A stretch of DNA of 64,000 nt. It comes from Clostridiales bacterium (GTDB lineage Bacteria; Bacillota; Clostridia; TANB77; CAG-508). The DNA is taken from assembly GCA_015056485.1 (NCBI GenBank), contig SVGD01000002.1, positions 71,662 to 135,661 of the forward strand, written 5' to 3'. The notes beneath the pieces were generated by a model. It was not told where the DNA came from and ran no database searches. It worked only from the letters and a program-made list of their open reading frames with translations. Shown here piece by piece: positions 40,092 to 40,502 of this stretch. The number at the start of each line of letters is the position of its first letter. Within the stretch, counting starts at the first letter, position 1. A program made the position numbers and the translations under genes.

Positions 40092-40296
40092 GTCAACTAC
40101 TTAGTTCTTTCTTTAACCGGAAGAAAGACATCCAACTAAAAATAAATTTTAATTGGATAAGTTTTGACATCATGCCACATTGCACAATATTCACAAATCT
40201 ATAATGTGAATATGTGGCGAAAGCGGGTTTATCTTTTTAGGTTAGAGCGAAACGAGTTTAAGAAAAATCTTAAACTCGTTTCGCTTTTATTTTTCT
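40092..40296 (+). ncRNA. candidate stand-alone structured small RNA (unit U1) ending in intrinsic terminator
   Basis: Own promoter (40058), conserved 5' box TTGGATAAgTTTTGAC, internal hairpins (ATTCACA...TGTGAAT), box TAGGTTAGAGCGAAAC, terminator AGCGAAACGAGTTTAAG..CTTAAACTCGTTTCGCTTTTATTTTT; no ORF. Confidence 0.4.
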
Positions 40297-40297
40297 C

Positions 40298-40326
40298 TTG
40301 CTTTTTTATGTAAAACATGCTATACT
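40298..40326 (+). promoter_or_regulatory. shared promoter module copy 4 (TTGCTT-17-TATACT)
   Basis: cTTGCTTttttatgtaaaacatgcTATACT then leader hairpin CCTTCTGAtaaaccTTCAGAAGG. Confidence 0.55.
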
Positions 40327-40332
40327 TTTAAA

Positions 40333-40502
40333 GTCAAAGTTTATATCCTTCTGATAAACCTTCAGAAGGACATCCTTCTGAGCTATTATTCAGTTGGATA
40401 AATTTTTGACCATCACGCGTGCTACAGTCCTCAGACTGGGTGATGAAATAGGTTAGGGCGAAACCGGCTTAAGATAAATCTTAAGCCGGTTTTGCATTTA
40501 AA
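40333..40502 (+). promoter_or_regulatory. structured 5' leader (unit U2, paralog of U1) with terminator-like hairpin upstream of 40599 gene: candidate attenuator/riboswitch
   Basis: Shares TTGGATAAaTTTTTGAC, TAGGTTAGGGCGAAAC boxes and terminator GAAACCGGCTTAAG..CTTAAGCCGGTTTTgcaTTT with U1. Confidence 0.4.

Follow-up and report, generated by a model that had tools for sequence, protein, structure and literature searches.

Two tandem RNA units that share a promoter and a 5′-terminal three-way junction with a neighbouring mRNA leader probably form a narrow family of small RNAs in gut Clostridia

The window, by which we mean the whole 64,000-nucleotide stretch of DNA analysed here, has a G+C content of ~27% and carries nearly all of its genes on the minus strand. 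Identity between its TypA protein and those of "Clostridium sp. CAG:780 / CAG:492"-type MAGs from uncultured gut Clostridia does not exceed 82%. Between typA and plsC lies a 2.4-kb plus-strand island (~39250-41720; G+C 33%), which encodes three small proteins of 157, 131 and 146 aa, each with an N-terminal signal or membrane anchor, together with three related RNA elements termed U0, U1 and U2 (Table 1). None of the three proteins matched a family in Pfam, NCBIfam, PHROG or PADLOC, and the AlphaFold model of the 157-aa protein (pLDDT 62) showed a generic beta-sandwich with no significant match in the PDB. In 61 of 80 related loci, plsC lies upstream of typA on the same strand, mostly adjacent to it and otherwise separated from it by other sequence; the one larger plsC-typA gap that we inspected (locus L019) contained unrelated genes. 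We therefore consider the island lineage-specific.

Several observations concern the island and its flanks more generally. In the plsC region (41720-42330, minus strand), the acyltransferase ORF ends after 131 aa at a poly-A run (~41935-41950), and the usual C-terminal part (..NVPIVPVGIQG..) runs on in another frame. The 131-aa call recurs in independent assemblies, and the ORF represents a pseudogene with a frameshift or else contains a slippage site. The family of the 157-aa protein (39448-39921 and homologues P0001-P0008) is mosaic, with P0003-P0005 joining a window-type N-terminal half to a P0007-type C-terminal half, an arrangement that suggests cassette recombination. As a rule, divergence is faster in the coding regions of the island than in its UTRs. 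A G+C-rich hairpin (GGGCGATTAAAATCGCCC; 39979-40000), located after the 157-aa gene's terminator and before the U1 promoter, is replaced in L087-L089, L091 and L102 by one or two other G+C-rich hairpins (GGGGTCGGTCTTGACCGACCC, GGGCAGGTCAAGACCTGCCC) with the same CTACAAT after them, and may represent a small repeat-type element.

Table 1. Genes and RNA features of the island and its flanks, in window coordinates.
Feature	Position	Strand	Description	Basis
typA	37402-39219	-	one flank of the island	
U0 promoter	39300-39328	+	TTGCTT, 17-nt spacer, TGgTATAAT (extended -10)	read from sequence
U0	39336-39419	+	third 5′-terminal three-way junction copy, in the 5′ UTR of the 157-aa gene	covariance model, conservation
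157-aa lipoprotein-like gene	39448-39921	+	U0 is its 5′ UTR	
U1 promoter	40057-40085	+	TTGCAT, 17-nt spacer, TGtTATAAT	conserved in L084, L102, L093, L112
U1 5′ domain	40092-40168	+	three-way junction	folds, RNAalifold, pair counts
U1 central hairpin	40174-40218	+	GCCACAU...AUGUGGC	conserved asymmetric internal loop UUGCACAA, variable apex
U1 single-stranded linker	40219-40243	+	conserved AAAGCGGG and AGGUUAG	unpaired in RNAalifold consensus
U1 intrinsic terminator	40244-40297	+	20-bp stem and UUUUAUUUUU	terminator scan, folds, RNAalifold
U2 promoter	40298-40326	+	TTGCTT, 17-nt spacer, TGcTATACT	sequence, U1/U2 alignment
U2 5′ domain	40333-40410	+	three-way junction as in U1	folds
U2 central hairpin	40411-40445	+	CAUCAC/GUGAUG base, conserved GUGCUAC, covarying apex	folds, orthologues
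U2 linker and intrinsic terminator	40446-40502	+	linker AAAUAGGUUAG	folds
Promoter of the 40599 gene	40491-40520	+	TTTGCA-18-TGtTATAAT (TG upstream of TATAAT)	simple promoter scan, orthologues
plsC	41935-42330	-	other flank of the island	

All features described in an earlier, sequence-only reading of this DNA were located where it had placed them, and its view of U1 (40092-40296) and U2 (40333-40502) as tandem paralogues was borne out. The two units share 78% column identity in an alignment that includes their promoters, and an nhmmer search with U1 recovered U2 (E = 5.2e-8) and no other match within the window. Each unit comprises an extended -10 promoter, a 5′-terminal three-way junction (3WJ) of ~77 nt, a variable central hairpin, a single-stranded AGGUUAG stretch and a strong intrinsic terminator. 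The promoters of U1, U2 and U0 follow one layout, with TTGCAT or TTGCTT at -35, a 17-nt spacer and an extended -10 (TGnTATAAT or TATACT), and the RNA is predicted to start at the G of GUCA, 6-7 nt past the -10 element. Among orthologues, the -35/-10 hexamers and GUCA are fixed while the intervening 6-7 nt vary, as one would expect where promoter and start site are genuine. Upstream of U1, GTCAAC always lies 6 nt past the -10 hexamer, and those 6 nt vary; the orthologous U2 promoter in L084/L102 reads TTGACT-17-TATAAT. The U0 hexamers are kept in L084 and L087-L093, with variation in the -10 to +1 stretch and in the upstream flank. A simple promoter scan did not flag the U0 promoter because its -35 element matches at only 3-4 of 6 positions.

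The 3WJ occupies the first 77-78 nt of each RNA and is formed by P1a (GUCAA/UUGAC), P1b ((A/G)CUU/AAG(U)), P2 (8-9 bp, its 3′ strand rich in purines and terminating with GAAGGAC), two junction nucleotides (AC) and P3 (AUCC.../...GGAU). In U1, P1b is ACUU/AAGU, P2 is UUCUUUCUU/GAAGAAAGA and P3 is AUCCAA/UUGGAU. In U2 a direct repeat (AUCCUUCUGA) allows an alternative, rod-like fold, and P1b shows a compensatory change from U-A to C-G between the window and L084. The central hairpins pointed out earlier (ATTCACA/TGTGAAT in U1 and CATCAC/GTGATG in U2) and both terminators are present in the minimum-free-energy folds, whose stability exceeds that of shuffled sequences (z = -9.0 and -9.2 for the two units; 0 of 200 shuffles as stable). 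The apices of these hairpins differ between U1 and U2, and an internal-loop motif is conserved within each type (UUGCACAA in U1, GUGCUAC in U2). Compensatory pairs in the U1 hairpin fall at alignment columns 97-121 and 103-115, and the U2 apex reads CAGUC/GACUG in the window, CAUCC/GGAUG in L103 and CUGUUCAUG/CAUGAGCAG in L105. Terminators with stems of 17-22 bp and subsequent U-tracts close the units. Only that of U1 was flagged by a simple terminator scan; within the 17-22-bp stem of the U2 terminator, an inner 10-bp stem is followed by UUUUGCAUUU, and the stem carries compensatory changes from C-G to G-C and from C-G to A-U.

Two boxes had also been described as common to both units. Both are indeed present in each; treated earlier as sequence motifs, they are mostly helix strands. 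In box 1 (TTGGATAAG...TTGAC), the 3′ strands of P3, P1b and P1a follow one another without a gap, and the half of box 2 that reads GCGAAAC forms the A-tract at the foot of the terminator. Since the two copies of box 1, at 40153-40168 (TTGGATAAGTTTTGAC) and 40394-40410 (TTGGATAAATTTTTGAC), differ by one T, the consensus first given for it was only approximate. At both 40238-40253 and 40449-40464, box 2 reads exactly TAGGTTAGRGCGAAAC; U1 has TTTAGG, not AATAGG. A pseudoknot between L2 (AACC) and the linker (GGUU) was rejected: the complementarity spans 4-6 nt and does not exceed that of shuffles (p = 0.2-0.9), and the only variant pair is non-compensatory.

Protein-anchored look-ups recovered orthologous islands or fragments, all from animal-gut assemblies (L084/L085, from NCBI MAG GCA_017437145.1; L102; L103; L105/L106; L101; L087-L093; L111/L112). 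Compensatory changes occur in every helix; because the orthologues amount to ~8 sequence variants from one narrow clade, this covariation rests on few independent events. In an alignment of 13 distinct 5′ domains (U0, U1 and U2 combined), which is model-fitted, 97.3% of cells are paired, with changes on both sides in 10 of the 23 pairs; 0 of 500 column shuffles reached the real value, and slid controls gave 40-60%. Four full-length U1-type RNAs, folded de novo with RNAalifold, again gave the 3WJ, the central hairpin and the terminator, and showed nine compensatory pairs. AGGUUAG is found in all available U1 and U2 orthologues that include the 3′ half, except that U2 of L084/L102 has AAGUUAG; like the internal-loop motifs, it is conserved amid otherwise variable sequence. 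The units, which we take to be under selection, persist in loci whose neighbouring proteins are down to 48-63% amino-acid identity; between the window and L084 they are no more conserved than coding DNA (0.51-0.87 versus 0.83-0.93). Wherever a recovered locus includes sequence before the 131-aa gene, one or more units immediately precede the gene on its strand, two of them in the window and one in L112. The latter locus is a deletion variant of the island, without U0 and without the 157-aa gene at this position, in which a single RNA with a U1-like 5′ part and a U2-like terminator directly precedes a homologue of the 131-aa gene that has a canonical SD and ATG. In this variant, J2/3 changes from AC to GC, and AAGGAC is replaced by GGGGC.

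A third copy of the promoter and the 3WJ (U0), which the sequence-only reading had missed, lies at 39300-39419 with no terminator after it. Covariance model R1, built from four U1/U2 domains only, recovered all U0 copies at full length (26-27 bits, E ~2e-4; 27 bits and E = 2e-4 for the copy in the window), and U1 and U2 thus carry the same structured element as an mRNA leader. U0 is 90-96% identical in L090-L092, compared with 50-57% for the adjoining linker and SD and 47-69% for the coding sequence. The few changes in U0 fall in loops L2 and L3 and in junctions, which supports the 3WJ over a rod-like minimum-free-energy alternative. This rod (fold B) was discarded as the conserved structure of U0, as the changes in L087, L090, L091 and L092 break its pairs and yet sit in 3WJ loops; in the folding models it is a possible alternative state. 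U0 and U2 adopt both folds in silico, the rod being 2.3-4.8 kcal/mol more stable (2.4-3.8 kcal/mol in the two U2 copies tested), and the 3WJ is the only fold that U1-type RNAs form in silico.

The family, which the sequence-only reading had not recognised, has no counterpart in Rfam 15: a scan of the whole window gave 0 gathering-score matches. A search in E-value mode, covering the window region as well as six orthologous loci, gave scattered and mutually inconsistent hairpin or terminator matches far below threshold. Neither nhmmer nor the two covariance models detected a homologue in 80 typA loci of related MAGs, where the best match (L027) proved to be an ordinary terminator. Model R2, built from all copies, added no member from the window or from ~970 kb of related loci. 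The only candidate for an additional window copy (9213-9295, 17.7 bits) falls within a coding region of the opposite strand. A pattern scan of the JGI metagenome collection returned seven matches, all attributable to chance, three patterns gave zero or chance matches in viral contigs, and blastn against phages and plasmids gave no match. The leaders of the 131-aa and 146-aa genes bear some resemblance to the units by eye (GUCAAAGGAC...) and were not accepted as members, the covariance models having failed to detect them. Hammerhead or other ribozymes, type I or III toxin-antitoxin systems, retrons and transposon guide RNAs were likewise set aside, with no Rfam match for the RNA families among them; the three island proteins matched no known family, and none of the other window ORFs inspected resembled a partner enzyme.

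U1 had been proposed to be a stand-alone sRNA, and what can be read from the DNA agrees. It has its own promoter and its own intrinsic terminator, both conserved in orthologues, and no ORF common to them: a 49-aa ORF in U1 shrinks to 21 aa in L084 and lies in a different frame in L112. U2 orthologues have no ORF in common either. A small-peptide coding function was ruled out on the grounds that the U1 and U2 ORFs are conserved in neither length nor frame, and each unit thus appears as an independent sRNA gene without conserved coding potential.

The start of the 131-aa gene (40566-40682) is ambiguous in the alignment. Conservation of its frame and amino-acid sequence reaches further upstream than any canonical start codon that is itself conserved: the TTG at 40599 is TTA in L084 and L101, the ATG at 40680 is TTG elsewhere, the ATGs of L101 and L112 are at different places, and gene callers give products of 99 to 153 aa. 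In all three island mRNAs, a segment of the 5′ UTR is complementary to a segment just past the stop codon of the same gene. For the 131-aa gene, the hairpin loop GUGGGGGG within 40536-40556 pairs with CCCCCCAC at 40995-41010; the pairing holds in five orthologues, with the lengths of the G-run and C-run changing together and a 12-nt match in L112 (shuffle p<0.002). The corresponding segments are 41145-41153 (GUGGGGAGG) and 41652-41660 (CCUCCCCAC) for the 146-aa gene (9 nt; three orthologues) and 39407-39414 (UAAGGAAA) and 39922-39929 (UUUCCUUA) for the 157-aa gene (8 nt; weaker in other variants). This complementarity could reflect 5′-3′ end pairing or 3′-UTR-derived regulators. The promoter and leader of the 146-aa gene (41054-41202) include a ~110-nt leader that is near-identical in L084 and L112, where the protein is only 47-63% identical, and the leader could form a 5′-terminal junction of its own (GUAAAACCUUU/AAAGGCUUUUAC). 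An inverted repeat (TTTACATAA...TTATGTAAA) flanks this promoter. TTATGTAAA occurs in or beside all island promoters (39308, 40065, 40306, 41054 and 41096), which account for five of its 11 matches in the window (~4 expected by chance), and a near-identical promoter (TTGCTTTTTTATGTAAATTGTAGTATAAT; 7965-8005) precedes another small ORF at ~8036. The recurrence of TTATGTAAA could mark an operator or a promoter subtype, or simply shared ancestry.

Taken together, we favour the reading, to which we assign a probability of roughly 0.6, that U1 and U2 belong to a new, narrow-clade family and are two trans-acting sRNAs descended from a promoter-leader cassette. The cassette, comprising a promoter and a 5′ leader, would have undergone tandem duplication, with the parent-type copy, U0, presumably still forming the 5′ UTR of the lipoprotein-like gene next to them. 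U1 (~205 nt) and U2 (~170 nt) are predicted to be two independently transcribed and constitutively terminated non-coding RNA genes. Each RNA would start exactly at its 5′-terminal 3WJ and continue through the hairpin, the single-stranded AGGUUAG and the terminator, and both would act in trans. Their base-paired 5′ end may shield them from 5′-dependent decay, a protection that 5′ stem-loops confer on Bacillus mRNAs.

As for the mode of action, we tentatively propose, at a little less than even odds, that regulation comes about through base pairing between an mRNA and the conserved AGGUUAG region, which is single-stranded. Its high prior and the conservation of the motif within variable sequence make this the most likely mode. 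A point against it is that AGGUUAG is G-rich, whereas the seeds of Firmicute sRNAs are typically C-rich. A duplex scan of the single-stranded regions of U1 and U2 against 106 ORF starts of the window yielded no outstanding target, the island genes ranking 11th to 50th, and the matches of 6-8 bp in the 146-aa gene's leader and at codons 28-30 of the 131-aa gene were at chance level or not conserved.

The sequence-only reading had instead cast U2 as an attenuator or riboswitch leader lying between a promoter and the 40599 gene, and in its broadest form this becomes a pair of tandem cis-acting elements in which the 3WJ senses a signal and the terminators gate read-through from U1 into U2 and on into the gene. 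That the units consistently sit just before the 131-aa gene, on its strand, would suit such a scheme, as would a riboswitch-like layout of a structured 5′ domain followed by a terminator and the placement of U0 within a true 5′ UTR. The claim for U2 did not hold, however. A promoter past the U2 terminator (40491-40520), which that reading had also missed and which is conserved in every orthologue (L084, L101, L103, L104-L108 and L112), intervenes between U2, which has the same architecture as U1, and the gene; what follows U1 is the U2 promoter, not an ORF. Nascent-RNA folds up to the terminator loop in five orthologues revealed no upstream partner that sequesters the G+C-rich terminator stem, whose 5′ strand pairs only weakly and locally with the linker, so that no antiterminator stands in mutually exclusive competition with the terminator. 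Because the gene has its own conserved promoter and there is no antiterminator, we conclude that U2 is not its leader. For the cis scheme as a whole, it also counts against it that every unit has a conserved promoter of its own and that the stems of U1 and U2 covary without an evident conserved pocket: among the few sequences available, junctions measure 0-3 nt and are not invariant, with few conserved unpaired nucleotides and the J2/3 change in L112. U0, for its part, lacks an expression platform, both of its predicted folds retain P1, the SD of its gene lies ~20 nt further on and differs between orthologues, and nothing matched Rfam. We regard cis action as improbable. It is less probable still that U1 and U2 are relics, that is, duplicated promoter-leader cassettes that have lost their ORFs and yield stable but functionless transcripts with the 3WJ as a generic 5′ stabiliser. 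The duplication origin is clear, copy number varies between the window and L112, and the leader of the 131-aa gene resembles a decayed copy (GUCAAAGGAC...GGAAAAAUUUUUG), albeit one that the covariance models do not detect. Decay would not, however, lead one to expect that compensatory changes maintain the helices everywhere, the central hairpin and terminator included, that AGGUUAG and the internal-loop motifs stay conserved inside variable sequence, or that units are kept in every recovered island variant with sequence upstream of the 131-aa gene.

The main alternative to AGGUUAG pairing keeps the sRNAs in trans but moves the contact to the 5′ domain: U1, U2 or both may act as leader mimics that titrate a protein or RNA reading the U0 3WJ and thereby tune the lipoprotein gene. 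By our analysis this is unlikely, at perhaps one chance in four or five. The 5′ domain is common to one mRNA leader and two sRNAs, the EutX/Rli55 sRNAs provide a precedent (PMC5449094), and U0 and U2 share CCUUCUGA...GAAGGAC along with the predicted two-state fold. Moreover, U0 is constrained far beyond its flanks (90-96% against 47-69%), which argues that something reads its sequence. The 5′ domains of U1 and U2, on the other hand, covary freely and reach only 27 bits against U0, and hence are not under the same sequence constraint; L112 keeps its sRNA without U0 or the lipoprotein gene at this locus, and common descent already explains the shared sequence. Folds also place the GGA triplets, two per domain, in the 3′ strands of P2 and P3 and not in hairpin loops, unlike CsrA sites and unlike the multiple loop GGAs of CsrB/RsmZ-type RNAs. 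No csrA or hfq homologue occurs within the 64-kb window, which says little at that span. A wider version, in which the island is a self-contained post-transcriptional system, is slightly less likely than mimicry itself: a factor would read a bistable U0 3WJ, U1 and U2 would buffer it, and all five transcription units would be governed by UTRs that are more conserved than the rapidly evolving small envelope proteins beside them, in mRNAs with conserved 5′/3′ UTR complementarity. With these alternatives weighed, trans-acting sRNAs descended from a promoter-leader cassette remain our preferred reading of U1 and U2.

To our knowledge, hardly any regulatory RNAs of uncultured low-G+C gut Clostridia have been described. 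U0, U1 and U2 offer a clean and comparatively supported candidate family, with three paralogous copies in one locus and two roles, mRNA leader and stand-alone RNA. The arrangement is a natural test bed for the conversion of a 5′ UTR into an sRNA gene and for leader mimicry, and its immediate impact is modest because the family is narrow.

Paralogous sRNAs, several of them in tandem, are familiar from GlmY/GlmZ, Qrr1-5, PrrF1/2 and the streptococcal csRNAs, and GlmY serves as a decoy for the protein partner of GlmZ by titrating RapZ. Like these, U1 and U2 are duplicated genes, each under a promoter and terminator of its own, that fold alike and diverge in the centre; they differ in having no sequence or Rfam kinship with them, in a paralogy that reaches the 5′ UTR of an mRNA, and in their uncultured low-G+C Clostridia host. 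With 3WJ riboswitches, such as the purine class, they share a ~80-nt three-way junction at the 5′ end with an intrinsic terminator behind it, but they show no evident conserved junction core, no antiterminator and no Rfam match, and a promoter precedes the ORF. The aprE and ermC leaders exemplify the 5′-terminal stabiliser stem-loops and STAB-SD elements of Firmicute mRNAs. U0, U1 and U2 resemble them in that the helix includes the first transcribed nucleotide and a purine-rich, SD-like AAGGA sits close to the 5′ end, a long way from the start codon, whereas a generic stabiliser would explain neither the near-invariance of U0 nor the retention of the module in sRNAs. STAB-SD elements are also mentioned in a paper that describes EutX/Rli55, sRNAs of Enterococcus and Listeria that carry a copy of the ANTAR site of the eut mRNA leader and sequester EutV (PMC5449094). 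There, too, a Firmicute sRNA carries the structured element of an mRNA leader, one that belongs to its own regulon. On inspection of the folds, however, U1 and U2 have no ANTAR two-hairpin motif and no riboswitch that sets the length of the sRNA; they share with the leader a whole 5′-terminal domain of 77-84 nt, inherited together with its promoter, and their role as decoys is hypothetical. As paralogous sRNA genes with intrinsic terminators, U1 and U2 are thus ordinary in kind, and what is less ordinary is the three-way paralogy of two sRNAs and an mRNA leader, promoters included.
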